From Rickettsiales bacterium (GTDB taxonomy: Bacteria > Pseudomonadota > Alphaproteobacteria > Rickettsiales > UBA3002), in NCBI GenBank assembly GCA_046154225.1, contig JBJXEM010000041.1:3411-67410 (forward strand): DNA of 64,000 nt. The letters are read 5' to 3'. Positions 4,718 through 16,580 of this stretch are shown piece by piece (the stretch's first letter is position 1; each line of letters opens with the position of its first letter). A program made the position numbers and the translations under genes. The notes below the pieces were generated by a model, which had not been told where the DNA came from, did not search any database, and saw only the letters and a program-made list of their open reading frames with translations.

Positions 4718-5053
4718 ATGGTAATTTTTATGAGTAACAAAAAACTCCTTATCATCAGCTTGCTGTTAGCCACGCTACCGCAGCTCGCTTTCGCCGATGA
4801 TTTTCGCCTGACTTATAAGGACGGCAATTTCACTCCCGCCACACTTACCATCCCTGCCGGTGAAAAAGTGAAGCTCATAGTAGTGAATCAGGATGCCTCG
4901 CCCATCGAGTTCGAAAGCCACGAACTGAACCGTGAAAAAGTGGTTTCCGGCAATGGCGAAGCGGTAGTGTTTGTCGGTCCGCTTAAGGCTGGAAGCTACC
5001 CTTTCGTCAACGAGTTCAACGAGAAGGCTAAAGGCACCCTCGTCGCCAAATAA
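4718..5053 (+). CDS. Periplasmic cupredoxin-like protein associated with an FTR1 permease (FtrB-like)
   Basis: Signal peptide KKLLIISLLLATLPQLAFA, then a single beta-sandwich-sized domain (TLTIPAGEKVKLIVVNQD...AGSYPF). It lies directly upstream of an FTR1 permease. An alternative start is at 4730. Confidence 0.7.
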   Translation: MVIFMSNKKLLIISLLLATLPQLAFADDFRLTYKDGNFTPATLTIPAGEKVKLIVVNQDASPIEFESHELNREKVVSGNGEAVVFVGPLKAGSYPFVNEFNEKAKGTLVAK

Positions 5054-5231
5054 TTCATCAGTTCTCTGGAGTTTCCTGCTCCATGTGTGCTGCGTCCCGC
5101 TCGGGTGTTTACAGCAGAATCCTCGGCGGATTGAGATACGAAGGCGCGGATTTCTTCGGCATTAGCGACGCCGCGGCCAATCAGGCAGCCCGTGTGCTGG
5201 TGGAATATGCATTCTATTTTAGAGGTCACCC

Positions 5232-6062
5232 ATGCTCGCCACATTAATCATCGTGTTTCGTGAAGTGATGGAAGCCGGGCTTGTCGCAGGCATCGTGCTG
5301 GCTGCCACGCGCGGCGTGCCGCAGCGTGGCCGGTTCGTGGCTTATGGCATTGCTGGCGGCGTGTTGCTGGCCTGTGTGGTCGCCATGTTCGCGCGTACTC
5401 TCGGCGAAGCGATGGAAGGGTTCGGGCAGGAATATTTTAACATCGGCATCCTCAGTGCCGCTGTACTGATGTTGACATGGCATAACGTGTGGATGGCCCG
5501 TCACGGCCGCGAAATCGCCACCGAAATGCGGGCGCTTGGGGCCGAAGTGGCAAGCGGCAATCGCACCCTCACCGCACTAGCCGTGGTGGTAGGCGTGGCG
5601 GTGCTGCGCGAGGGTTCGGAAGTGGTGCTCTTTTTATATGGCGTGGCCATTTCGGGGCAAAACTCTGCCGCGTCGATGCTGAGTGGTGGCGCGTTGGGGC
5701 TGGTGCTCGGCGTCGCGCTGGCGTGCGTAACCTATCTTGGCCTCATGCGCATTTCGAACAAAAACCTGTTCAAAGTCACGACCTGGATGTTGGCTCTGCT
5801 GGCGGCTGGTATGGCCACGCAAATCGCGTTTTATCTGCAGCAGGCACAAATCGTGACGGTGCTGGGCGACGTGGTGTGGGACAGCTCGGCCATCTTGGCG
5901 GATAGCAGCATCGCGGGCAAAGCTTTGCACACGCTGGTGGGCTATACCGACCGCCCCACGGCATTACAGTTGTTGGTGTATGTGGCCATGCTGGCGGTTA
6001 CCGCAGTGCTGATGCGCCTGTTCGGCCACACGCCGCAACCCAAGTTGCAAGCGACCGCCTGA
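5232..6062 (+). CDS. FTR1-family high-affinity iron permease
   Basis: Two REXXE motifs (FREVMEAG and LREGSEVV) in a polytopic membrane protein of 276 aa. The SD AGAGG lies 6 nt upstream. Confidence 0.85.
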   Translation: MLATLIIVFREVMEAGLVAGIVLAATRGVPQRGRFVAYGIAGGVLLACVVAMFARTLGEAMEGFGQEYFNIGILSAAVLMLTWHNVWMARHGREIATEMRALGAEVASGNRTLTALAVVVGVAVLREGSEVVLFLYGVAISGQNSAASMLSGGALGLVLGVALACVTYLGLMRISNKNLFKVTTWMLALLAAGMATQIAFYLQQAQIVTVLGDVVWDSSAILADSSIAGKALHTLVGYTDRPTALQLLVYVAMLAVTAVLMRLFGHTPQPKLQATA

Positions 6063-6908
6063 TTATTTCAGCCGATGCTCGATGCTTTTCTCTAGATCGT
6101 CGAGCCGTCGGATAATCTGGCCGATTTGCAACTCGGCGCGCACATTTATATCGTGGTCGATTTCCGCCACCAAGCGGTCTTTATCGGCGGCGCGGTTCTG
6201 GCTCATCATGATGATGGGCGCGGAATAAACAGCAAGAAACGACATGCCGAGATTGAGCAAAATGAACGGAAACTGATCCCATAACGGCCACGGGTTTTCG
6301 GGGTGCGCGGCATTATGCACGTCGGCGATGGAGTTCCACGCAATCCAGCCGAAAATGACAATGCTAATGGCAAAAATAAAGCGCCAGCTGCCCATCACCT
6401 GCGCCACCCAATCGCTGACGCGCGCACCAAAAGTGATGCGTGCGTCGTCAATCTGGTTCACGTTGGCAATCGGTTCGCCGCGTAGCAACGCGTCGGATTT
6501 ATACACGCGCAGCGCCAGCGTTTTCATCACATCAATCGCGGCTTGCGGATGGGCAACCAGGAATTTCTCAAACGCATCAAACGCGAGGGTGAGCATCTGT
6601 GTGGCCGTGACCGAACGCACACGCGCCGCGCGCGGCTGCTGAGTGAGCAGTGCCAGCTCGCCAAAATATTCTCCCGCCCCCGCTTCGCCCAACAACACTT
6701 CTTCGCGCGCATGGCTGTGGGTAATGAACTGCACCTGACCGGACAGGATGATGAAAAAGCTGTCACCCGGCTCGCCCTCACGCAAAATGGTTTGGCCCGG
6801 GGCGAACGACACGGGCTGCATCGCCGCACGTAAATCCGGCAGCGCTTCGGCCGCCACGTTGGCGAAAAGCGGAATGCTGTTCAGGTCGAATTGCGCGAAA
6901 TTATCCAT
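6063..6908 (-). CDS. Cyclic-nucleotide-binding domain protein fused to a DUF1003 membrane domain
   Basis: N-terminal cNMP-binding fold (FFIILSGQV...FGELALL...RAARVRS). The C-terminus carries the DUF1003-type PFILLNLGMSFLAVYSAPIIMMSQNR segment. The start overlaps the upstream gene by 8 nt. Confidence 0.8.
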   Translation of the reverse strand: MDNFAQFDLNSIPLFANVAAEALPDLRAAMQPVSFAPGQTILREGEPGDSFFIILSGQVQFITHSHAREEVLLGEAGAGEYFGELALLTQQPRAARVRSVTATQMLTLAFDAFEKFLVAHPQAAIDVMKTLALRVYKSDALLRGEPIANVNQIDDARITFGARVSDWVAQVMGSWRFIFAISIVIFGWIAWNSIADVHNAAHPENPWPLWDQFPFILLNLGMSFLAVYSAPIIMMSQNRAADKDRLVAEIDHDINVRAELQIGQIIRRLDDLEKSIEHRLK

Positions 6909-7284
6909 CCATCATCCCCGTTTGCAGTGCGATGATTGTGAGTAAAATATAGGTGAGCTGGTGCAAAAACTGGTCGAAGCCAAACACGATCCAATACCAC
7001 GCACCCGAATGTGCGTTCAGGGAATAACGTTTGTTGATTTGATTCTTCGCCCAGTCGATATGATAGTGAATCACCGCATCGAGTAGCGCGAGGCCCAGCG
7101 CGGCCCATGGCCCCACAAACAGCACCGCCACCAGCCATGTTCCCGCCGCGTGAATGCTTACATGCAGCAGCCCGCCGGGGTGACCGTAAATGCCTTTATT
7201 CTGGTACTGATACGGCCGCTGCAATGGAAAATCGCAGAGGAAATGTTTGGCCATCAGGGCCACAAGCAGTGCCAGTTGCGTCAT
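6901..7284 (-). CDS. DUF3307-family membrane protein
   Basis: KHFLCDFPLQ ... HVSIHAAGT ... HYHIDWAKN pattern in a 127-aa hydrophobic protein. There is an ATGA overlap with the cyclase stop. Confidence 0.65.
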   Translation of the reverse strand: MTQLALLVALMAKHFLCDFPLQRPYQYQNKGIYGHPGGLLHVSIHAAGTWLVAVLFVGPWAALGLALLDAVIHYHIDWAKNQINKRYSLNAHSGAWYWIVFGFDQFLHQLTYILLTIIALQTGMMDG

Positions 7285-8582
7285 GCGAGTACCACGATGT
7301 CGAGGGGTTCAGTCACACCCGCAACCGTACGGGCGAGCCGGATTTCTTTCGGCGCAGGTGGTGCATAGCCTTGTGACAGCGCTTCAGTGAGTGTTGCACC
7401 ATTGGTGAGGGCGCGGGCGTTTTCGGGCTTGTTGTGTTTCTCGAGTTTGGCCGCGAGGTTTACGGTTTCGCCGATCACGGTATATTCCAGCCGGTCGTGA
7501 TCGCCAATCACGCCGAACACCACTTCGCCCACCGCCACGCCTGCGCCGATGGCGACTGGCACCAGCCCCTGTGCGCGGCGCATTTCGCTCCAGCTATCGG
7601 CGGCGAGCATGATGGCATCGACCGTGCGCAGCACGTTGGCGGCGCACTGATTGCAGGCGGAAACGGCCCCGAAACTGGCCAAAATGCCGTCGCCCATGAA
7701 TTTGTCGATACTTCCGCCAAACTGGCGGATGATGGGCACGACGAGCTGCTGATATTCGGCCAATAGCGCAATTAATTCGCTCGGGCTCAGATGAGCGGAA
7801 GCTTTGGTGAACCCACGCATGTCGGTGAACAAAATGGCAGCGTGGCGGATTTCGCCGCTGCCCACCATCAGCCCGTCTTCCGACTCGGTGATTTTCATGG
7901 CCACGTCGGTATCGAAGAACTTCGACAGTTCCTTCGTGGCCTGCGTTTGACTGACGGCGGTGAACAACGTGTCGCGCGCGCGGCTGAGTGTATAGGCGGT
8001 GATGCCGGTGACGAGCCCGATGGCCAGAATTTTGTCGAATTCGCCGCCCGGGTGCAGGCTGCGCGTGGAGGCATACGTTACGTAATCCCAGGTAATCACC
8101 CCCTGCCCCGTCACATGCAGCACATAAGCGACGAGCAGCGTCCAACCAAGCATGGCCGTAACGCCCGACACCACCACCCAGCGCGGCTCGAAGCGTAAGC
8201 CGCGCAGCGCAATCAGCACGAACACATAGGCGATATGCGTGTTTTTCAGGTCGATATTCGGCAACGCTTCAAACTGCAAATGGTAGGTGCCGATGATGAA
8301 AATCAGCAGCGCCATTTCGGTGACGACCGAGAAAAATAGGAACATTGCATTGAGCTGCTTGCTGTAGGCAAACCACAGTCGCACCAGCACCAGAATAACG
8401 AACAATCCAAGCCCCAGCGGCACCGAACGCACCGCCGCATCCGGCGGGTGGCCCACAGGCGCGATGAAATAAATCAGCCCGAGCAGCGCCGCCACGCCCA
8501 GCTGCAAAAACGCCACCAGCAATTCGCTTTTGTGCTGCAGTTCGGCGAGATCGGCATGAATGCGGCGTTGGGGGGCTTTCAT
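7281..8582 (-). CDS. Membrane-anchored class III adenylate/guanylate cyclase (about 6 TM N-terminal domain)
   Basis: The catalytic domain reads AILFTDMRGFTKASA...IDKFMGDGILASFG...GVAVGEVVFGVIG...EYTVIGETVNLAAKLE. I chose the ATG at 8582 (MKAPQRR), which forms an ATGA overlap with the upstream stop. The longer ORF reaching 8642 is rejected. Confidence 0.85.
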   Translation of the reverse strand: MKAPQRRIHADLAELQHKSELLVAFLQLGVAALLGLIYFIAPVGHPPDAAVRSVPLGLGLFVILVLVRLWFAYSKQLNAMFLFFSVVTEMALLIFIIGTYHLQFEALPNIDLKNTHIAYVFVLIALRGLRFEPRWVVVSGVTAMLGWTLLVAYVLHVTGQGVITWDYVTYASTRSLHPGGEFDKILAIGLVTGITAYTLSRARDTLFTAVSQTQATKELSKFFDTDVAMKITESEDGLMVGSGEIRHAAILFTDMRGFTKASAHLSPSELIALLAEYQQLVVPIIRQFGGSIDKFMGDGILASFGAVSACNQCAANVLRTVDAIMLAADSWSEMRRAQGLVPVAIGAGVAVGEVVFGVIGDHDRLEYTVIGETVNLAAKLEKHNKPENARALTNGATLTEALSQGYAPPAPKEIRLARTVAGVTEPLDIVVLA

Positions 8583-8857
8583 AGTGTTTCCGCCCGGCCG
8601 CCGTGAATGCGTTCGCACAGGCCGCTTGGCAGCATTACCCATTCATCGGGATCGCGGTCGGCGCTGGATTGCATAGCGCAGGAATGTTTAGGCGTGGCGC
8701 AATCATTATGGCCCTGGCGCGCCACACCGAAGCAGCGTTCGCGCTCGATTTTTTCGGCCGCGTGCATTTGCAGCCAGTTGGTTTGCGTGTGCACTACCGC
8801 CAGCGCTGCACCCAGTGCCGCAAGCACCACCACGCCGTTTTGTGCGGTGCGACTCAC
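8579..8857 (-). CDS. DUF2282-family secreted 4-Cys peptide (BufA1-like bufferin precursor candidate)
   Basis: Signal peptide (VVVLAALGAALAVV...MHA/AEK), then CFGVARQGHNDCATPKHSCAMQSS...EWVMLPSGLCERI. This matches the DUF2282 pattern C-[FY]-G-V-A-x-x-G-x-N-D-C-A ... SCAG ... W ... P-x-G-x-C. The GTG start is 1 nt after the adc stop, with a GAAGG SD. Confidence 0.75.
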   Translation of the reverse strand: MSRTAQNGVVVLAALGAALAVVHTQTNWLQMHAAEKIERERCFGVARQGHNDCATPKHSCAMQSSADRDPDEWVMLPSGLCERIHGGRAETL

Positions 8858-8858
8858 G

Positions 8859-9626
8859 TTATTTCGCCTTCAAGTAATCATGTACTACGCGGCCATAGGG
8901 TAGTGTAGCGTCCGCCACCACGTGCAAGCCGCCGATGACGCGACGCACCGGCAAATCGGCCACCGGCGCGTTCACATGCGCGTTCAGCTGTAGGCGCGCA
9001 GGCCCGGCCCATGCGCCTTTTACGGTGATATCGGACATGTTGTAGGCCACGAGTTGCGCAATGGCGGCATTACCGTCCACATGCGGGATCCATTTCAGGT
9101 TCACGCGGGTAGCACCTAGGCGTGCCGTCAACTCAGCCAGTTCCGCTGCACCGTTTTTGCCGTCTAGCAAGTTCTGGTGCTTGTAGGTCATGGTCGCGAC
9201 GGCAACCAGTTCGCCGGCATATTCCAAACGGCCCGTGAGTGTGTCGTGGGTGATTTTTAGCGAAGCTTTGCCTAATTTTTGCGGGAAGCCCCAAATCTCG
9301 CGCCCGCCGGAAATGGGGGGTTCGCAGTCGAGATACATCTGGCTCACATGGTTCATGGCCACCCCGTCGAGCGTAGCCGGAATCACGATGCCCGTTTGGG
9401 TGTACACGCCAAACCCTGAACTATCGGCCATGCGCGCGAATTCGTAAAACACCTGGTTGCTACCGTCGGGCTGAAGCGGCTGCGGCAGTAATCGGCGAAT
9501 CGCTTCGGCGTCAGATTCATAGGTGATGATGAGGTATTCGCGGTTGAAGTAATGATACGGCCCGCGCGGATAAGTCGGGCTCGCCACCGGCATCGACGGG
9601 GAATTGAGAATATCAGCGATTTTCAT
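8859..9626 (-). CDS. adc: Acetoacetate decarboxylase (paralogue 2)
   Basis: Full-length similarity to clostridial Adc: SPTYPRGPY.FNREY, MYLDCEPPISGGREIWGFPQKLG (catalytic Lys region), VKGAWAGPARLQL and LPYGRVVHDYL. Confidence 0.85.
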   Translation of the reverse strand: MKIADILNSPSMPVASPTYPRGPYHYFNREYLIITYESDAEAIRRLLPQPLQPDGSNQVFYEFARMADSSGFGVYTQTGIVIPATLDGVAMNHVSQMYLDCEPPISGGREIWGFPQKLGKASLKITHDTLTGRLEYAGELVAVATMTYKHQNLLDGKNGAAELAELTARLGATRVNLKWIPHVDGNAAIAQLVAYNMSDITVKGAWAGPARLQLNAHVNAPVADLPVRRVIGGLHVVADATLPYGRVVHDYLKAK

Positions 9627-9629
9627 GCG

Positions 9630-10400
9630 TTATTTCTCCGCCAGATAATCATGCAGCACTCGGCCATAGGGCAAGGTTAAATCGGCCACGAAATGGGTGC
9701 CACCAATCACCCGACGCACAGGCAAATCGGCTACGGGTGCGTTCACATGCGGCATTAAATCGAGCCGCGCGGGGCCCGCCCACGCGCCCTTTACCGTGAT
9801 TTCCGACAGGTTATAGCCCACCAATTGCGCAATCGCGAGGCTACCGTCCACATCGGGAATCAGTTTCAAATTCACCTGCGTTTTGCTCATTTTCTTCACG
9901 ATGGCGGCGGGGTCGTTCATGCCCGTCTCGGGGTTGCGGATGAGGTTTTCGTGTTTGTACACCATGGTGCCCACCGCCACCTCTTCGCCCGCATATTCGA
10001 TGCGGCCGGTGAGCGTGTCGTGCACGACACTCAGCACCGGATGCGCGAATTTTTTGGGGAAGCCCCACACTTCGCGTCCACACGAAATGGGCGGTTCGCA
10101 ATCGAGATACATTTGCGCGGTGAAGTTGACATGTTCGCCCTGAAACAGCGCCGGAATCACGATGCCCGATTCGGTGTAATCGCCAAAGCCCGAACTGTCC
10201 GGCATGCGGATGAATTCATAAAGCACGGTGTTGCTGCCGTCGGGCTCCAGCGGCTCGGGCAGCGCGTGGCGAATCGCTTGCGCGTCGGACTCGTAAGTGA
10301 CGATAAAGTACTCGCGGTTGATAAACCGATACGGCCCGCGCGGGTAGCTGGGGCTGGCCAACGGCATTGAAGCGAGGCCAAGAATTTCGTCAATTTCCAT
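9630..10400 (-). CDS. adc: Acetoacetate decarboxylase (paralogue 1)
   Basis: It has the same motifs as the neighbouring copy (SPSYPRGPY, MYLDCEPPISCGREVWGFPKKF). The two copies are roughly two-thirds identical by eye. The gap to the downstream copy is 3 nt. Confidence 0.85.
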   Translation of the reverse strand: MEIDEILGLASMPLASPSYPRGPYRFINREYFIVTYESDAQAIRHALPEPLEPDGSNTVLYEFIRMPDSSGFGDYTESGIVIPALFQGEHVNFTAQMYLDCEPPISCGREVWGFPKKFAHPVLSVVHDTLTGRIEYAGEEVAVGTMVYKHENLIRNPETGMNDPAAIVKKMSKTQVNLKLIPDVDGSLAIAQLVGYNLSEITVKGAWAGPARLDLMPHVNAPVADLPVRRVIGGTHFVADLTLPYGRVLHDYLAEK

Positions 10401-10412
10401 GTCAACTGGCTC

Positions 10413-11480
10413 CTATAAAAATTCTTTGCGTATATCAACGGACGATTCTTTGCCGATCTTGACATAGTTTTCATCCAGCCATTGTTTGGCAATCGCTCGC
10501 CCTTTATCGCGCAGATGGCAGAGAAATTCCCAATCGGTATTCATTTTGCTCGACGCATCATATTCCGACATCGCCGCATCCGAACGCACGGAATGAATAT
10601 GCATTTGCTTCATATCACTCGCTTTTACTTTTTTGTCCTCAATTAGTTTGCCAACAAACGCAACGGCACGCATTTCGCGCATGAGGGATGAATTGAAACT
10701 CACCTCGTTCAAACGATTCAGGATCTCGGAAGCGGTAGTGGGAACACCTTTGCGCACAATCGGATTGATATGCACAATGACCACGTCTTGCGAGTCGCAA
10801 TGATATATCAGCGGGAAAATGGCGGGGTTGCCGATATAGCCACCATCCCAATAATATTCGCCTTCAATTTCTACCGATTGAAACATGAATGGCAAACACG
10901 CAGAGGCCAGAATCGCATCGACATTAATTTCCTTGGTTTCAAAAATACGCACTTTGCAGGTTTCCACATTGGTCGCGCAAATATTGAGTTTGATGGGAGA
11001 GCGTTTACGAATAGCTTCAAAATCAATCGTCTTCTCCAAAATATCTTTCAGTGGATTGAGGTTGAATGGATTGAGTTGATAGGGCGAAAAAACCCGTGTC
11101 ATGAAGTCGGCGATGTGGTCAAGCGGTGATGGCTCTGGTTTGAAATTCGCCTTTTTGCCAAACCACGAAAAACTTGGGAGCGATTTTAGCGGATTCGATT
11201 TTTTTGAAACATCGCTGACAGTCTGCCAGAAATGCGTGAGCGCCGCACGCGCCTCTGCCTTATCGTTATTTAAAAGCCCCTGGGCAAGCACCACGGCGTT
11301 CATTGCGCCGGCGCTGGTGGCGCTGATGCCTTCAAACTCTAGCCGTCCATCTTCCAATAAATAATCCAGTACACCCCAGGCGAATGCCCCGTGCGAGCCG
11401 CCGCCCTGAAGGGCGAGGTTAATGGTTTTTGCTTTTGCGTTAGCCGATGAAGGCGCACGTGCTTTGGTGTTGGTTTTCAT
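10413..11480 (-). CDS. patD: Patatin-like phospholipase/esterase (PatD-type, linked to bdhA)
   Basis: Oxyanion GGGSHG and serine-lipase box ATSAG (INLALQGGGSHGAFAWGVLD...GISATSAGAMN). I chose the ATG at 11480 (MKTNTKAR), 11 nt downstream of the bdhA stop. The longer ORF reaching 11726 overlaps bdhA. Confidence 0.75.
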   Translation of the reverse strand: MKTNTKARAPSSANAKAKTINLALQGGGSHGAFAWGVLDYLLEDGRLEFEGISATSAGAMNAVVLAQGLLNNDKAEARAALTHFWQTVSDVSKKSNPLKSLPSFSWFGKKANFKPEPSPLDHIADFMTRVFSPYQLNPFNLNPLKDILEKTIDFEAIRKRSPIKLNICATNVETCKVRIFETKEINVDAILASACLPFMFQSVEIEGEYYWDGGYIGNPAIFPLIYHCDSQDVVIVHINPIVRKGVPTTASEILNRLNEVSFNSSLMREMRAVAFVGKLIEDKKVKASDMKQMHIHSVRSDAAMSEYDASSKMNTDWEFLCHLRDKGRAIAKQWLDENYVKIGKESSVDIRKEFL

Positions 11481-11491
11481 GATTCTGATCC

Positions 11492-12274
11492 TTACCGTGC
11501 TGTCCATCCGCCATCGACCGGCAAGGCAATGCCGGTAATGGAGCTGCCAGCATCGCTGCATAAGAATGCCACGGTCGCGCCCATTTGTTCCGGCGTTGCG
11601 AACCGCAGCGATGGTTGCTTTTCCGAAAGCATTTCTTTCGCAGCTACGTCGGCCGCAATGCCCTCTTTCGCCGCACGATCGTCGATTTGTTTTTGCACGA
11701 GCGGGGTAAGCACCCAGCCTGGGCAAATGGCATTGCAGGTAATTTGCTGCGTTGCGTTTTCGAGAGCCACCACTTTAGTCATACCCACAATGCCGTGCTT
11801 GGCGGCGACATAGGCGATTTTCTCTGGCGAACCAACCAATCCATGTGCCGAAGCGATGTTGATGATACGCCCAAAATTACGTTTCTGCATGCCCGGCAAA
11901 ATGGCTTTAATCGCATGAAATGCGCTCGACATATTGATCGCAATGATCGCATCCCACTTATCTTCAGGAAACGCTTCTGTGCGCGACGTGAACTGAATGC
12001 CCGCGTTATTCACGAGAATGTCTGCGGAGCCAAAGCTGGTTTCGCAGAGCTTCACCATCTCACGGATTTGCTCAGGTTTGCTCATGTCGGCGGGCGAATA
12101 GACGCATTTTACACCATGTTTTTTCTCAAGACCCGTACGCTCGGTTTCAATCGCCCCCGCATCACCAAAACCGTTGATGACGATATTAGCGCCGTGACTG
12201 GCGAGTACATGGGCAATGCCCAGGCCAATGCCGCTAGTGGAACCGGTGACGATGGCAGATTTTCCTTTTAACAT
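11492..12274 (-). CDS. bdhA: D-3-hydroxybutyrate dehydrogenase (SDR family)
   Basis: MLKGKSAIVTGSTSGIGLGIA (TGxxxGIG), NNAGI and the YVAAKHG catalytic triad region in a 260-aa product typical of BdhA. The SD AAGGAGAA lies upstream. Confidence 0.85.
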   Translation of the reverse strand: MLKGKSAIVTGSTSGIGLGIAHVLASHGANIVINGFGDAGAIETERTGLEKKHGVKCVYSPADMSKPEQIREMVKLCETSFGSADILVNNAGIQFTSRTEAFPEDKWDAIIAINMSSAFHAIKAILPGMQKRNFGRIINIASAHGLVGSPEKIAYVAAKHGIVGMTKVVALENATQQITCNAICPGWVLTPLVQKQIDDRAAKEGIAADVAAKEMLSEKQPSLRFATPEQMGATVAFLCSDAGSSITGIALPVDGGWTAR

Positions 12275-12341
12275 GGTATTCTCCTTGGTGATTGTAATCA
12301 GCTATTCGTAAACAGCTGGACAAAGGTTACAAAAATGTAAG

Positions 12342-14549
12342 CTACAGTGAATTTGCATTTGTTGAATCAGTAATCAACCGAATCGAGCGTTTGAAGGTCA
12401 GGTAGGCCCAGAACCACTCAACCATCACCGCCACACGGCTTTGTAAATTGGCCAAAAACAGCACATGCACCGCGCCCCAGAACCACCACGCCAGCGCGCC
12501 TTGCAATTTCACCTTGCCAAAATCGGCCACGGCGGCTTTTCGGCCGATGGTGGCGAGGCTGCCGTAATGGCGGTAGTGGAAAGCTTTTTGTGGAACACTG
12601 CCTTCAATCCTGGCGCGGATATGTTTGGCGACGAACTGGCCGCTTTGCTTTGCGGCGGGGGCGAGGCCCGGCATCGGCTTACCCTTCCACACTTCAGCCA
12701 ACACCGTGTCGCCAATGGCGTAAACACCCGGGCAATTTGGAACGCTGAGATCAGCGTTTACTTTTAAGCGCCCGGCGCGGTCGGCCTCGCCACCCAGCCA
12801 TTGCGCGGCGGGTGACGCTTGCACGCCTGCGGCCCAAATCACGTTGAGTGAGGCAATGCGCTCGCCATTCACCACCACGCCGTCGGCGTCGATCGTTTCC
12901 ACCCGTCCACCAGTTTTTACGGTGACGCCCAATTTCTCGAGCGCTTTTTGGGTGTAGGTCGAAATGCTTTCCGGCATCACCGCCAGCACGCGCGGCCCGG
13001 CTTCCACGAGGTAGATTTTTGCATTTGCGGGGTCGATGCGGCGGAATTCGTCTTCCATGCCCTGGTGTGCAAGTTCGGCCAATGCGCCAGCTAACTCCAC
13101 GCCCGTGGGGCCACCGCCGACAATCACGAAGCTTAGTAATTTTTCACGCAAGGCGGCATCGTCGGTGTTTTCAGCGGCTTCAAACGCGCGCAGTAGCTTG
13201 CCGCGCACGGCGATGGCGTCTTCCACCCGTTTCATGCCCGGCGCGAATTCCGACCACGCGTCCTTACCGAAATAGCTATGGCGCGCACCGGTTGCGAGCA
13301 CCAGATAGTCGTAAGCAAGCGATTTACCGTTAGCCAATTTCACGTGACGGGCGGCTTTGTCGATGCCTGTCACTTCGTTCATCATCACCCGGATATTCTC
13401 CTGATCGCGAAATAGGCCGCGAATGGGCGTTGCAATGTCCGACGGCGACAATCCTGCGGTCGCCACCTGATACAGCAGCGGCTGGAATAAATGGTAGTTA
13501 TGCTTGTCGACCAGCGTGATGCGGCAGGCCGTGGTACGCAGCATGCGCGCGGTGGCGACGCCGCCGAAACCGGCGCCCACAATCACCACATGCGGCAAGC
13601 CGTCGTAATTTTTGGTCGCCATGCCATCGAGCTGCGGGAAGATTTTCCCAAGTGTCAGGCGCACGATATGGTCGAGCGACAGAGCACCGGGCCCGCGGAA
13701 AAACAGAATAGTAAGCAGCATGAACCAATAAACGAATTCGGTTTCTTGTACTGAACTGGCATCAATGTCCTGAGTGAGCACCGCTAGAAGCACTAGCGAT
13801 GCAGCAGCCACCAACCGCGTACCAAACCCAAGGGCCAGTAACAATGCACCCGCGCCACAAAGCAACTCGGCTAAACCGTTTTCCTGCATGGTGCGCAATA
13901 CCGAATAATGCGGTTGGTATTCGAGGAATTGCAGCGGCTCGGCAAAGCTCATCGATTCCATGGCAGCGTGGCCGGCCACATACAGCACCGCCGCAATCCA
14001 CAGCCGCATACCCAGCAGATAGATTGGGCCGATAACCCGCGTGAGCCAGGCAAAAAAGTATGAAAATGTTTTACTGAGCGGCAGCGCCGTGTCCTTCAGC
14101 CCGCGCAACAGATGGTCGAGCGAATTGCGCCCTGCCCCCATCACCACCCAATAGCCGAGAATAATAATCCAGAACGCCTGCGCGTTCACGGGGTGATACG
14201 CAATTTGCGCGATGGCCGTGAGTATTAGTAAGGGTAGCGCTGCAAAGCGTGTCATGAGGCCCAGCACCAGCAGCACGGGGCAAATGATTTCGATCGCGAC
14301 GCCGAGATACGCCGCGCTCACCGGGTCGATCCAGCTGAGGGGATATTCGTTGGCGGCGAGGTATAGCGCCGTGTCCCAATTGCCGAGTTTCAGTGCGCCG
14401 GAAATGAAGAATGCCTGCGCGATGCTGATGCGGCGGATGAGGTCCATGACCGGCGCCAAAACCCGTTCGCTGAACCGGAGCACTTGCCCAATCCCGCGCA
14501 TGATATCGGCGAATATGTGACGATAGCGATGCGTGATAGCTTGGCTCAT
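12342..14549 (-). CDS. Fusion protein: two DoxX-family membrane domains + type II NADH:quinone oxidoreductase (NDH-2)
   Basis: The N-terminal ~330 aa contain two DoxX-like 4-TM modules ([15 protein letters not shown]...[11 protein letters not shown] and a second [13 protein letters not shown] module). They are followed by [15 protein letters not shown]...LVLATGA...[15 protein letters not shown]...VYAIGD and an NDH-2 C-terminal membrane-anchor segment. I chose the start at 14549 (MSQAITH), which gives an ATGA overlap with the upstream stop. Confidence 0.8.
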
Positions 14550-16246
14550 GCGGCGGACCTTTTGTTGGCGGCGTTGTCGGGGTGGTGGGCGAGAATGCCG
14601 TTGCGCATCCAGCGCGGGAACCAGTGATTGAGCAGCCCGCCGATGGCTTCGTCGGCAATGGCGTGTTCGGCCTGCACGGCTTCCAGCGCATCGCCGATGC
14701 TGAGGCCCGCGAATAATTGGCGGAGCATGCTGTATTCGTCGGCCTCTAAATCCATGCGCCACACCGCATCCTCGTGGCGGAACACTGCGAGGTAATTTTT
14801 CTCGGGCGCAGGCGCAGCGGGCGATTGCTCGTCTTTCACCGCGCGGTAATAGGCGTTTACAGGATAATCGAAGACTAAAAGTTCAAGGGCTGCGCGTGGG
14901 TGAAGCTTCGATTCCATCAACGTTTCTGCGTCCATGCCCTCAAGATGCTGGGGTTCAAGCGGAGCAGTTTCAGCTTCGTCCATCAGACGGGTGATACAAG
15001 CTTCGAGTGTCGCGAGTTCCAGCGCGAACGGATCGCTGGTTTCGTGAGTTGCCAGAAACTGCGGCAATTGCAGTGGGTAGCGGCTGATGTTGAAATGCGT
15101 CGACTGCGCCTGATTCACAAAATCGGTAATGAGCGTGTCGAAGCGCGCTTCGCCCAGATAATGTTTCAACACCAGATAATCTTCCGCCGTCACGCCGAAC
15201 AGCCGCCCACGATAGGCGTTGGTGTATACCGCCAGCTGCGCCTCAGCCGGGAAATCGTTTTTCGTGCGAATCCACTCGTCGGGCTTACTGTCGAGCCGTG
15301 CGCCTTCGAGAATAGCCGTTTGCATACGCGTTTGTGTGTCGGCCAGTGGCGTGGCGTGGTTCGCGACATACGGCGCGTGGGCGACGGCGAGTTGAGGCAG
15401 CGGTGCGTAATTGGCGGCATCGCGCGCGGCTTCTTTTGCTTTGGTGAGTTCGGCGTCGAGCACCGAGAATTCGGGAATATTGTCGTCCCACTCGACCATG
15501 GTGTTGGGTGTGCGGCCTGCTTTATGCACCACGTATTTGTATAACGCCCAGACTTCGTCGACCACATGGTCGTCATGCGTGTCGATGATGTGGGTGCCCC
15601 GGTTGGTGTGGCCGGAAAGGTGGATTTGCACCACTTTATCAAGCGGCAGCGTGTCGATGTATGTTTGCGCGTCGAGCCGGTGGTTGAAGCTGCTGACATA
15701 CACATTGTTCACGTCGAGCAACAAATGGCAGCCCGATTCCTCGACCATGCGGGCGATAAATTCCGCCTCGCCCATGTCGGACGCTTTGAATTCGAGATAC
15801 GTCGAGGGGTTTTCGAGTGCGATGGGCCGCTCCAGAAAATCCTGCACCTGTTTGATACGGCTGATGGTGTGCTTCAGCGATTCCTCGGTGTAGGGCATCG
15901 GCAGCAGGTCGTGCGAGTTTTTGTGGGCGATGCCGGTCCAGCATAAATGGTCCGACACCCAGGCGGGTTTCAGCCAGTCCATCAACGCTTTCAGCTTTTG
16001 CATGTACTCAGAATTCACGGGGTCAACCGTGCCGATCGACATGGCAACGCCGTGCATGACGATGGGATAACGCTCGCGAATGCGGGCCAATTTGCGCTTG
16101 GGTCGCCCGTCGGTATCCATGAAGTTTTCGGAGATGATTTCGAACCAATCGACGGCGGGCCAGTGATCGAAAATATGTTTGTAATGGCTCACGCGCAGGC
16201 CAAGACCAAAGCCTAATTGCGGAAAAAAATCCTGCTGCGTGGTCAT
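14546..16246 (-). CDS. Fusion of a DUF692/MNIO (MbnB/BufB-like) enzyme with a DUF2063 (MbnC/BufC-like) partner domain
   Basis: The N-terminus [12 protein letters not shown]...[10 protein letters not shown]...HGVAMSIG...SDHLCWTG...ENPSTYL...[10 protein letters not shown]...IHLSGH is the TIM-barrel DUF692 signature. The C-terminus [12 protein letters not shown]...[13 protein letters not shown]...[13 protein letters not shown] is DUF2063-like. I chose the start at 16246 (MTTQQDFF). Confidence 0.85.
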
Positions 16247-16271
16247 GATGTCTCGCCTTGGCTTCTCGCGT

Positions 16272-16303
16272 AAAAAAGGCGGGGGTGCGAACACCCCCGC
16301 CCC
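16272..16303 (-). terminator. Strong GC hairpin + U-tract between precursor gene and modification genes (attenuating terminator candidate)
   Basis: On the minus strand the sequence reads GGCGGGGGTG-ttcg-CACCCCCGCC followed by TTTTTT. It lies in the 76-nt gap between 16323 and 16246. Confidence 0.7.
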
Positions 16304-16322
16304 ATTTTAAGTCGAAGACAGA

Positions 16323-16580
16323 CTACTTCTTGCTGCCGTCGGTAGCGCAGCCGCCTTGGCCTTTGCACTCGTTGTGACCTTTGCACTCGTGCTTGTCGGT
16401 TTTGCAGCCGCCGTTGCCTTTGCAGGAGTTCTGGCCGGCGCAAGCGTGCTTCTCAGCAGCTTTTTCAGCGGTGGCGGATTTTTCAGCTTTGTGAGCTGCG
16501 TTAGCAACGCCAGCAGCCATGAAACCAGCGGTCAGCAGACCAGCGAGAGCAGCGGTAGCAATTTTTTTCGTAGCAGACAT
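16323..16580 (-). CDS. Secreted 6-Cys peptide, bufferin-type (BufA2-like) RiPP precursor candidate
   Basis: Leader MSATKKIATAALAGLLTAGFMAAGVANA. The core CAGQNSCKGNGGCKTDKHECKGHNECKGQGGC is two C-x-G-x-N-x-C-K-G-x-G-G-C repeats. The SD AGGAGAA lies 5 nt from the ATG, and the gene sits immediately 5' of the DUF692 gene. Confidence 0.75.
   Translation of the reverse strand: MSATKKIATAALAGLLTAGFMAAGVANAAHKAEKSATAEKAAEKHACAGQNSCKGNGGCKTDKHECKGHNECKGQGGCATDGSKK

Follow-up and report, generated by a model that had tools for sequence, protein, structure and literature searches.

The stretch of DNA analyzed in this work (hereafter "the window") comprises 64,000 nucleotides (nt) of a Rickettsiales bacterium (contig JBJXEM010000041.1) and carries on its minus strand, at 12342..14549, an open reading frame (ORF) of 735 amino acids (aa) in which two DoxX membrane modules are followed by a complete type II NADH dehydrogenase (NDH-2). 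The gene is embedded in a bufferin (buf) operon, that is, a cluster harboring Cys-containing precursors with a signal peptide, an MNIO enzyme and its DUF2063 partner. We suggest, with moderate confidence, that the fusion represents the NADH/quinone redox module of the bufferin system, in which a quinone-linked DoxX protein of the BufD/HvfX type is partnered with a dedicated NDH-2. A preliminary description of the same DNA had already proposed an in-frame fusion of two DoxX modules with an NDH-2; the Pfam assignments and the homologues reported below revealed that this fusion does exist, is complete and occurs widely. The combination of an NDH-2 with a tandem membrane domain of BufD-like DoxX modules has a precedent in Legionella, which has never been analyzed.

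Structure of the Fusion Gene and of Its Product

The ATG at 14549 was chosen as the start of the fusion because all the aligned homologues (16/16) begin there; the mechanical ORF is longer (12342-14762, minus strand) and extends up to a GTG at 14762. At the junction with the upstream MNIO gene, GCATGAGCC, the ATG of the fusion (14549-14547) overlaps the TGA of the upstream gene (14548-14546), and the resulting 4-nt ATGA overlap agrees with the coupling between the two genes that had been proposed previously. This coupling is not kept in the relatives of the window (whose loci are designated here by L numbers), since in L019 the two genes are separated by a 50-nt gap and in L101-L103 a standalone DoxX gene lies in between. 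The start of the MNIO gene itself was corrected to 16246.

The Pfam analysis of the whole fusion protein assigned 64.3 bits to DoxX across two stretches, 178 bits to Pyr_redox_2 (residues 320-637), 58.7 bits to Pyr_redox (residues 474-558) and 37.8 bits, versus a cut-off of 27.7, to NDH2_C (PF22366; residues 661-717). As for the NDH-2 part, both GxGxxG motifs are present (GAGFGG at residues 325-330 and GGGPTG at residues 478-483) and are invariant in 119 homologues. Over residues 5-413 of 420, C-terminal membrane helices included, the domain aligns with the mycobacterial NDH-2 (PDB 9mqy; E 1.8e-97), and its predicted structure matches the solved NDH-2 with a TM-score of 0.86 (Foldseek E 2.9e-38; 41% identity in the structural alignment). 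In the AlphaFold2 (AF2) model, the two C-terminal helices, corresponding to the amphipathic membrane anchor, fall at residues 685-698 and 702-717. The alignment with 9mqy, the structural match and the NDH2_C domain thus substantiate the earlier claim that the enzyme is complete, with both dinucleotide folds and the C-terminal anchor.

The quinone-site motif AQxAxQ reads APAAKQ, the first Gln being replaced by Pro and the second one being kept, and this form is invariant in the fusion family. The idea that it represents an adaptation specific to the fusion was rejected: the variant is common to a wider proteobacterial NDH-2 subfamily and is shared by standalone NDH-2 enzymes both with and without a buf context.

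Concerning the membrane part, the first module (DoxX1), scanned alone, scored 57.1 bits against Pfam DoxX (PF07681) and the second one (DoxX2) a borderline 22.4 bits versus a cut-off of 23.6. In more distant family members, DoxX2 is an unmistakable DoxX sequence, and the comparison of the two modules by BLASTP gave scores of up to 102 bits. A check of the membrane topology, which the preliminary description had recommended, was run using hydropathy and the positive-inside rule. It predicts 4+4 transmembrane (TM) helices with a cytoplasmic N-terminus, both this N-terminus and the cytoplasmic linker between the two modules being rich in K/R, and it places the NDH-2 domain on the cytoplasmic side, which is the side that the use of NADH requires. 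An acidic and highly conserved loop between TM1 and TM2 of DoxX1 (NWDxALYLAxxEYPVSWxDP) is predicted to face the periplasm. The helix pattern of the full-length AF2 model (pLDDT 82.7, pTM 0.68) agrees with this topology, and the model of the DoxX pair (pLDDT 79.8, pTM 0.77) contains four helices in module 2.

In DoxX1, the polar residues R40, K54, E68, Y69, E87, R101, and D145 are invariant or nearly so. DoxX2 is far less conserved and has lost the periplasmic loop in the Competibacteraceae clade; because of this divergence and loss, the pair resembles a covalent pseudo-dimer in which a single module would be functional. Moreover, since the canonical NDH2_C anchor is retained, the DoxX pair does not seem to be needed merely as an anchor. 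The search of PDB sequences with the DoxX pair gave no match, and Foldseek gave no significant one, the sole matches with a probability >0.5 being six entries of the vitamin-K-dependent gamma-carboxylase (GGCX). The membrane domain of GGCX binds vitamin K hydroquinone.

The comparison with other DoxX proteins revealed that DoxX1 shares 32-44% identity with standalone DoxX proteins in the bufD position; its median BLASTP score was 63.9 bits to the DoxX proteins of buf operons versus 21.8 bits to E. coli YphA and YqjF, the two outgroup sequences used. In a neighbour-joining tree, which is crude and has a thin outgroup of two sequences, the DoxX1 clade is sister to the standalone buf-type DoxX, and two of the closest standalone relatives of DoxX1 among the cluster representatives, both looked up, adjoin a BufA1 gene. 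Judging from these comparisons, DoxX1 is of the buf-associated type and much closer to the DoxX of buf operons than to that of E. coli.

Distribution of the Fusion

The search of 5.8 billion proteins, with sequences drawn from NCBI, ENA, JGI and Logan, retrieved at least 119 full-length homologues of 707-794 aa, which are 51-88% identical to the query, cover 96-100% of it and all carry DoxX, Pyr_redox_2 and NDH2_C; the exact look-up of the fusion protein of the window gave no record. Two scans of nucleotide sequences were also performed. The scan of genome contigs, for which an alignment including the GxGxxG stretch was used (HVVIVGAGF pattern), yielded at least 17 loci, 15 of 17 being DoxX-DoxX-NDH-2 fusions; the other two are a divergent long form (L016) and an unfused one (L015). 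In the JGI metagenomes, which were scanned with an N-terminal alignment devoid of the GxGxxG stretch, 278 stretches were confirmed and 80 loci were kept, all of which (80/80) are DoxX-DoxX-NDH-2 fusions. When the DoxX pair alone was used as a query against 1.84 billion cluster representatives, 438 matches were obtained at E <=1e-10 and 40 at E <=1e-30. The hosts of the fusion include Candidatus Competibacter and Contendobacter, Chromatiales, Stellaceae, Rhodospirillales, Sphingomonadaceae, Erythrobacter, and Lichenihabitans.

The possibility that the fusion is an artefact, due to a sequencing or assembly frameshift joining a DoxX gene to an ordinary ndh gene, is hardly conceivable and was rejected, given the at least 119 independent homologues of the same length and architecture, the fusions at the great majority of the loci of both scans, the linker conserved among homologues (PQLxG...) and the annotation of the fusion as a single coding sequence (CDS) in complete Azospirillum brasilense replicons. 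The preliminary description had named this frameshift, together with a fusion confined to one genome and devoid of buf-type neighbours elsewhere, as findings that would speak against its proposal; neither is the case, the architecture being shared by all these homologues and buf-type neighbours being recurrent.

Side by side with the canonical fusions, Burkholderia sp. PAMC 28687 (L107, 5051-8320) and Caballeronia sp. dw_19 (L016, 4377-7669) harbor a long NDH-2 of 640-692 aa with a different and shorter N-terminal membrane region containing a DoxX-like remnant. The genes of this long NDH-2 are preceded by those for a thioredoxin and a CcdA/DsbD_TM protein, and in L016 they are divergent from a bufA1-MNIO-DUF2063-DoxX cluster.

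Association with Bufferin Genes

In the clade of the window (61-73% identity), the genes are arranged in the conserved order [precursor]-MNIO/HvfC-(standalone DoxX)-fusion-SDR-patatin-ADC-(ADC)-BufA1-cyclase-DUF3307, where ADC stands for acetoacetate decarboxylase. The standalone DoxX gene is absent in the window, L019, and L020, and present in L022, L101, and L102; in L103 and L104 the fusion is accompanied by DoxX, patatin, ADC, BufA1, and the cyclase, with no MNIO gene nearby, and no MNIO gene lies upstream of the fusion in L018. In at least two clades the fusion occupies the bufD position (window, L019, and L031) or immediately follows bufD (L022, L101, L102, L033, and L042), and in L031, L033, and L042 it stands directly after bufA1-MNIO-DUF2063(-DoxX). 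At other loci (L008, L028, L032, L049, L052, L067, and L077) a complete bufABCD set lies a few kb from the fusion. A partial buf set, i.e., bufA1 and/or a standalone DoxX gene, was found in L007, L080, L081, and L084, where no MNIO gene was detected.

The frequency of this association was estimated on an unbiased set made up of the 84 fusion loci from the two scans, buf components being sought in the locus sequence at hand. At least one component of the bufferin cluster was found at 21 loci (25%) and, when only loci of 12 kb or more are considered, at 13 out of 33 (39%). Once the loci had been de-duplicated at 90% identity, a buf component was present in 20 out of 47 lineages and in 17 out of the 28 (61%) whose longest locus reaches 12 kb. 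The 0.915 Mb of locus sequence contain 11 MNIO genes; counting MNIO only (11/84 loci) understates the association, as BufA1, DUF2063, and standalone DoxX raise it. According to a rough estimate, chance would give a co-occurrence of at most 1-2%, because a bufferin cluster takes up a few kb in a genome of several Mb. The neighbourhood association spans Alpha-, Beta-, and Gammaproteobacteria.

A sugar cluster separates the fusion from the buf genes in L007, L052, L077, L080, L081, L084, and in Azospirillum brasilense p3 (L105, 5731-20510), where bufABCD is a few kb from the fusion and the order is SDR-aquaporin-GMC-VOC-fusion-GDE-glucosidase-LysR-DUF2282-DUF692-DUF2063-DoxX. A cluster of SDR, aquaporin, GMC oxidoreductase, tandem-VOC, fusion, amylo-1,6-glucosidase, and GH63 glucosidase genes was repeatedly observed beside bufABCD in L105, L052, L079-L081, and L084. 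Genes for methionine sulfoxide reductases (Msr; MsrA/PMSR and MsrB/SelR) were observed near bufferin/DoxX clusters in L101 (1-2190, duplicated), L102 (1133-1651), L018 (4707-5216), and L114 (2365-2862); those of L101 and L114 are near a unit composed of an extracytoplasmic function (ECF) sigma factor, NrsF, and BufA1, and one standalone BufD-like DoxX gene is co-directional with SelR.

Unfused DoxX and NDH-2 Genes

Plasmid p1 of Rhizobium sp. NLR16a (L106) harbors, from WP_210632100 to WP_247241778, genes for bdhA, patatin, DUF2282, DUF692, DUF2063, DoxX, NDH-2, adenylate cyclase, and DUF3307. The oxidoreductase is a 425-aa NDH-2 sharing 48% identity with the NDH-2 domain of the window. The DoxX and NDH-2 genes (7632-9428) are separate but share their reading frame, with 15 codons between them, so that a single stop-codon change could fuse or split them. 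This pair represents the classical Rosetta-stone configuration inside the same conserved gene set, and the Rosetta-stone argument of the preliminary description is upheld by these unfused neighbours located at the end of a bufABCD cluster.

In Rhizobium sp. TAL182 and R. lentis, annotation lines point to the same DoxX/NDH-2 adjacency. In addition, a standalone NDH-2 gene lies 3.3 kb from bufABCD in R. tumorigenes and 4 kb from a buf cluster in L015.

Function of the Fusion and Alternative Explanations

A possible mechanism for an NADH/quinone redox module of the bufferin system can be outlined. Cytoplasmic NADH, plausibly supplied by the 3-hydroxybutyrate dehydrogenase encoded nearby, would reduce the FAD of the NDH-2 domain; the flavin would pass electrons to quinone at the membrane interface, and the DoxX pair would bind or channel quinone/quinol, the periplasm-facing loop of DoxX1 (EYPVSW) being the likely site at which the electrons of quinol are used. 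In this way, the fusion might serve redox or copper chemistry around the bufferin after its export, e.g., the reduction of Cu(II) or the keeping of thiol/thiooxazole ligands in the reduced state.

The preliminary description had argued that DoxX works with the quinone pool. The part of this claim concerning the partner of DoxX is supported, as the two proteins are found both fused and, unfused, as adjacent genes; the quinone link itself, as well as the periplasmic redox role, we infer. The former is suggested by the fusion or adjacency with a quinone reductase, by the weak likeness to the GGCX fold and by the adjacency in E. coli K-12 (L112, 6563-8011) of the DoxX gene yqjF, directly upstream, to yqjG, coding for a glutathionyl-hydroquinone reductase.

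It had also been proposed that the fusion might deliver or remove reducing equivalents for the maturation of the peptide. The MNIO reaction is an O2-dependent oxidation. For this reason, and because published bufD deletions leave maturation intact (PMC11626156), such a role appears unlikely; this also applies to HvfX, whose function "is yet unknown" and for which a biosynthetic role is not expected (PMC11252979).

Several observations weigh against the fusion being the redox module of the bufferin system. On thermodynamic grounds, it is unfavourable for ubiquinol to reduce disulfides, which casts doubt on the electron acceptor. The GGCX matches of the DoxX pair are not significant (E 0.4-2; TMq 0.36-0.41). 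The only DoxX-type NCBIfam model matched by the fusion, the HvfX/BufD model NF050144, gave 53.3 bits for DoxX1 and 27.5 bits for DoxX2, below its cut-off of 80; since genuine bufD-position proteins also remain below it (45-68 bits) and E. coli YphA and YqjF reach 30-41 bits, the model is too narrow and a poor discriminator, and the match was rejected as a proof of BufD membership. Moreover, about three-quarters of the unbiased fusion loci lack a bufferin gene in the available sequence and most have no MNIO gene in reach, so that the fusion is often, but not necessarily, linked with bufferins. The gene most commonly found next to the fusion codes for a GH63/MGH1-like glycosidase and precedes it directly in 29 loci, in most cases overlapping it by 4 bp; many loci, especially those of Competibacter (where the GH63 gene overlaps the start of the fusion by 4 bp), have only this GH63 gene and no bufferin gene in reach. 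In several relatives a standalone bufD coexists beside the fusion and has not been replaced by it, and standalone NDH-2 enzymes of the same subfamily occur without a buf context in Shinella and Sphingomonas sp. AAP5. Lastly, the deletion of bufD in Caulobacter affected neither copper protection nor modification (PMC11626156).

The strongest alternative, which we consider rather unlikely, regards the fusion as a respiratory NDH-2 isozyme induced by stress or starvation, whose co-location with bufferin genes is incidental. The DoxX pair would represent only an extra membrane anchor or a quinone channel, and the fusion would be close to buf genes on account of stress islands or regulons common to both (ECF sigma, cAMP), without any biochemical pathway being shared. 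The quinone pool would be fed with NADH from the catabolism of storage compounds, namely polyhydroxybutyrate (PHB) or lipid in the window (patatin, BdhA, and ADC) and glycogen or glucosides elsewhere (GDE, GH63, GMC, and SDR). The heterogeneity of the contexts, with GH63 upstream in the 29 loci mentioned and VOC-GMC-GDE-GH63-MIP-fusion clusters recurring, would fit such an isozyme, as would the dehydrogenases and the genes for storage-compound catabolism beside the fusion in both main contexts, the ECF sigma genes directly upstream in L027, L028, L030, L035, and L078, the cyclase and the protein binding cyclic nucleotides in the operon of the window, and the dispensability of bufD in Caulobacter (PMC11626156). 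However, mere co-location would hardly account for a fusion that, in two clades or more, is located at the bufD position or right beside it, for an NDH-2 gene directly after bufD and in the same frame in Rhizobium sp. NLR16a, or for the two bufferin precursor genes that bracket the operon of the window; similarly, a passive anchor would require neither a DoxX1 of the buf-associated type nor its conserved polar residues, including those of the periplasmic loop, and the NDH-2 retains a membrane anchor of its own.

Still less probable, in our opinion, is a module for quinone/thiol detoxification similar to B. subtilis MhqP/CatD, E. coli YqjF-YqjG or M. tuberculosis DoxX-SseA-SodA, which would protect the membrane rather than act on the peptide or on copper, the NDH-2 domain keeping (semi)quinones or membrane thiol-reactive species reduced under copper-driven oxidative stress. 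VOC/glyoxalase neighbours are indeed recurrent; thioredoxin and CcdA/DsbD_TM genes accompany the long NDH-2 forms in Burkholderia, Caballeronia, and L094-L098; MsrA/MsrB genes lie near the cluster in L018, L101, L102, and L114, and a peroxiredoxin gene in R. tumorigenes; and the adjacency of yqjF to yqjG, as well as the role of M. tuberculosis DoxX as cited in PMC11252979, point in the same direction. However, these redox-repair neighbours are not conserved across clades, none of them is inside the operon of the window, and the bufferin-specific subtype of DoxX would be left unexplained.

Going beyond the redox module, we can speculate that bufferin systems are not passive copper sponges but carry out an NADH-driven delivery of electrons across the membrane through a BufD-type DoxX and its NDH-2, with NADH provided by an operon-encoded storage-lipid/ketone-body pathway (patatin, 3-hydroxybutyrate dehydrogenase, and acetoacetate decarboxylase), under the control of cAMP, for the periplasmic reduction of Cu(II) to Cu(I), which the bufferin would then capture, or the re-reduction of its oxidised thiooxazole/thiol ligands. 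This broader scenario is, in our view, unlikely; if it were true, DoxX would represent a new kind of transmembrane reductase, devoid of cofactors and dependent on quinone.

If the coupling between DoxX and NDH-2 is real, the picture of copper-binding peptides would shift from chelators to parts of a redox system, and the large DoxX family would gain its first biochemical handle. The fusion and the unfused pair give DoxX a concrete and testable partner, a specific NDH-2, through which it would be connected to NADH and the quinone pool, in a predicted topology with the NDH-2 inside and the conserved DoxX loop outside. Tractable carriers of the fusion or of the gene pair are L. pneumophila (lpg0671), Azospirillum brasilense (p3), and Rhizobium plasmids. 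The fusion also belongs to a larger conserved gene set lacking a published explanation, in which bufferin genes, DoxX/NDH-2, bdhA-patatin-adc, and cyclase-DUF3307 are brought together.

Organization of the Operon in the Window

The fusion is part of a tightly packed operon of 11 genes on the minus strand, spanning 6063-16580 (Table 1), which is bracketed by the two bufferin precursor genes bufA2 and bufA1 and contains three ATGA overlaps (MNIO/fusion, bufA1/cyclase, and cyclase/DUF3307).

Table 1. Coordinates of the fusion, of its domains and of the other operon features in the window.
Feature	Position	Strand	Evidence or remark
DoxX-DoxX-NDH-2 fusion gene, 735 aa	12342..14549	-	Pfam, homologues, AF2 model
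DoxX module 1, about aa 30-145, TM1-4	14115..14462	-	Pfam DoxX, conserved polar residues
DoxX module 2, about aa 165-300, TM5-8, diverged	13650..14057	-	Pfam borderline, four AF2 helices
NDH-2 domain: Pyr_redox_2 (aa 320-637) and NDH2_C membrane-anchor helices (aa 661-717)	12399..13592	-	Pfam, PDB 9mqy, Foldseek
BufA2-like precursor, 85 aa, signal peptide, 6 Cys	16323..16580	-	NCBIfam Cu_RiPP_BufA2 52.8 bits, below cut-off 60
Terminator-like hairpin, 12-bp GC stem, UUCG loop, U6	16272..16303	-	dG -29 kcal/mol, z -4.67
bufB/bufC: MNIO maturase fused to DUF2063/HvfC partner, 566 aa	14546..16246	-	MNIO_BufB 364 bits (cut-off 310); PF09836 54 bits
bdhA, 3-hydroxybutyrate dehydrogenase, 67 nt downstream of the fusion	11492..12274	-	TIGR01963 339.7 bits, cut-off 307
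Patatin-like phospholipase	10413..11480	-	Pfam; recurs beside the fusion in several clades
adc, first copy, acetoacetate-decarboxylase family	9630-10400	-	PF06314 annotated on syntenic homologues
adc, second copy, acetoacetate-decarboxylase family	8859-9626	-	PF06314 annotated on syntenic homologues
bufA1/DUF2282, second precursor, 92 aa, 4 Cys	8579-8857	-	PF10048 75.1 bits
Membrane adenylate/guanylate cyclase, multi-TM	7281-8582	-	operon tail
DUF3307	6901-7284	-	operon tail
Protein with cNMP (cyclic nucleotide)-binding/DUF1003	6063-6908	-	operon tail

A terminator-like hairpin, found by eye, sits between the bufA2-type precursor gene and the MNIO gene and is probably an attenuator giving an excess of precursor mRNA. 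The pattern scan for promoters and terminators, whose counts were no higher than in shuffled sequence, missed this hairpin, and the tRNA and Rfam scans of the window found nothing.

As far as the other genes are concerned, a fusion of MNIO with DUF2063 (530-569 aa) is also present in L019, L101, and L102, the two genes being separate in most of the other loci. The order BufA1-cyclase-DUF3307 is shared by L019, L022, and L101-L104, and a cyclase-DUF3307 pair ends the cluster of Rhizobium sp. NLR16a. The location of bdhA just downstream of the fusion, pointed out in the preliminary description, was confirmed, and its synteny is kept in the clade of the window (L019, L022, and L101-L103) and in the Rhizobium sp. 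NLR16a cluster. Taken together, bdhA, patatin, and the two adc genes of the operon (8859-12274, minus strand) resemble a route from 3-hydroxybutyrate via acetoacetate to acetone; the bdhA/patatin/adc set recurs with the fusion in L025, L057, L101-L104, Rhizobium sp. NLR16a, and L. pneumophila (lpg0672). Immediately beside the operon, on the plus strand (4718-6062), lie two genes whose products match Cupredoxin_1 (95 bits) and the FTR1 family of iron permeases (128 bits), a pair similar to the EfeO/EfeU metal uptake proteins.

Comparison with Known Systems

DoxX is a core component of bufferin clusters, being found in 40% of MNIO neighbourhoods, with its function unexplained in the 2024-2025 papers on bufferins, oxazolins and thiooxazole metallophores; in the same survey (PMC12452194, Table S1), Pyr_redox_2 and Pyr_redox_dim appear, without comment, in 11% and 7% of MNIO neighbourhoods, respectively. 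DoxX has also been proposed as a possible additional copper-binding factor (2025 preprint, 10.1101/2025.11.18.689057). Literature searches for a DoxX-NDH-2 fusion gave nothing relevant beyond the Legionella case: in the L. pneumophila "H4" GIG-homologous cluster (lpg0671-lpg0676), the fusion in lpg0671 was noted in one sentence by Jwanoswki et al. (2017, PMC5413113), whose description drew no inference concerning function, topology or a Rosetta-stone relationship. The neighbours of lpg0671, found in all five strains surveyed, code for acetoacetate decarboxylase, DUF2282, adenylate cyclase, DUF2063, and DUF692 (PMC5413113); a Legionella precursor is translationally coupled to a guanylate cyclase (PMC12452194, Figure S4 legend), and in the Lp01 lineage lpg0671 ("ndh") has lost 9 bp in frame (PMC3661481). 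By its published description (PMC5413113), the H4 cluster has the same gene set as the operon of the window, but it differs in gene order and strands, MNIO/DUF2063 being on the opposite strand, whereas in the window MNIO is fused to DUF2063, the precursor gene upstream is of the BufA2 type, and bdhA, patatin, and a second adc gene are also present. The cluster of Rhizobium sp. NLR16a differs from that of the window in having one DoxX module, separate CDSs for DoxX and NDH-2, no adc genes, and separate MNIO and DUF2063 genes.

With respect to the DoxD/DoxA thiosulfate:quinone oxidoreductase (TQO) of Acidianus, DoxX is distantly homologous to DoxD, the membrane subunit passing electrons to quinone. 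However, the fusion scores 18 bits against Pfam DoxD (cut-off 22.7) and lacks a sulfur-oxidation context, and no DoxA-like gene was found in the operon of the window, so that it does not belong to the DoxD/DoxA type. With classical NDH-2 enzymes (9mqy and that of C. thermarum, 4nwz), the fusion shares the full-length fold, both Rossmann folds, and the C-terminal membrane helices; these enzymes are monotopic, whereas the fusion adds an N-terminal DoxX extension of eight TM helices. Finally, the fusion shares with BufD/HvfX/GigT the slot directly after MNIO-DUF2063, and DoxX1 shares with them the W...EY.VP loop, an E in TM2, and the GLxTR motif; however, BufD/HvfX/GigT are standalone, single DoxX proteins, whereas in the window the DoxX modules occur in tandem and are covalently attached to an NDH-2.

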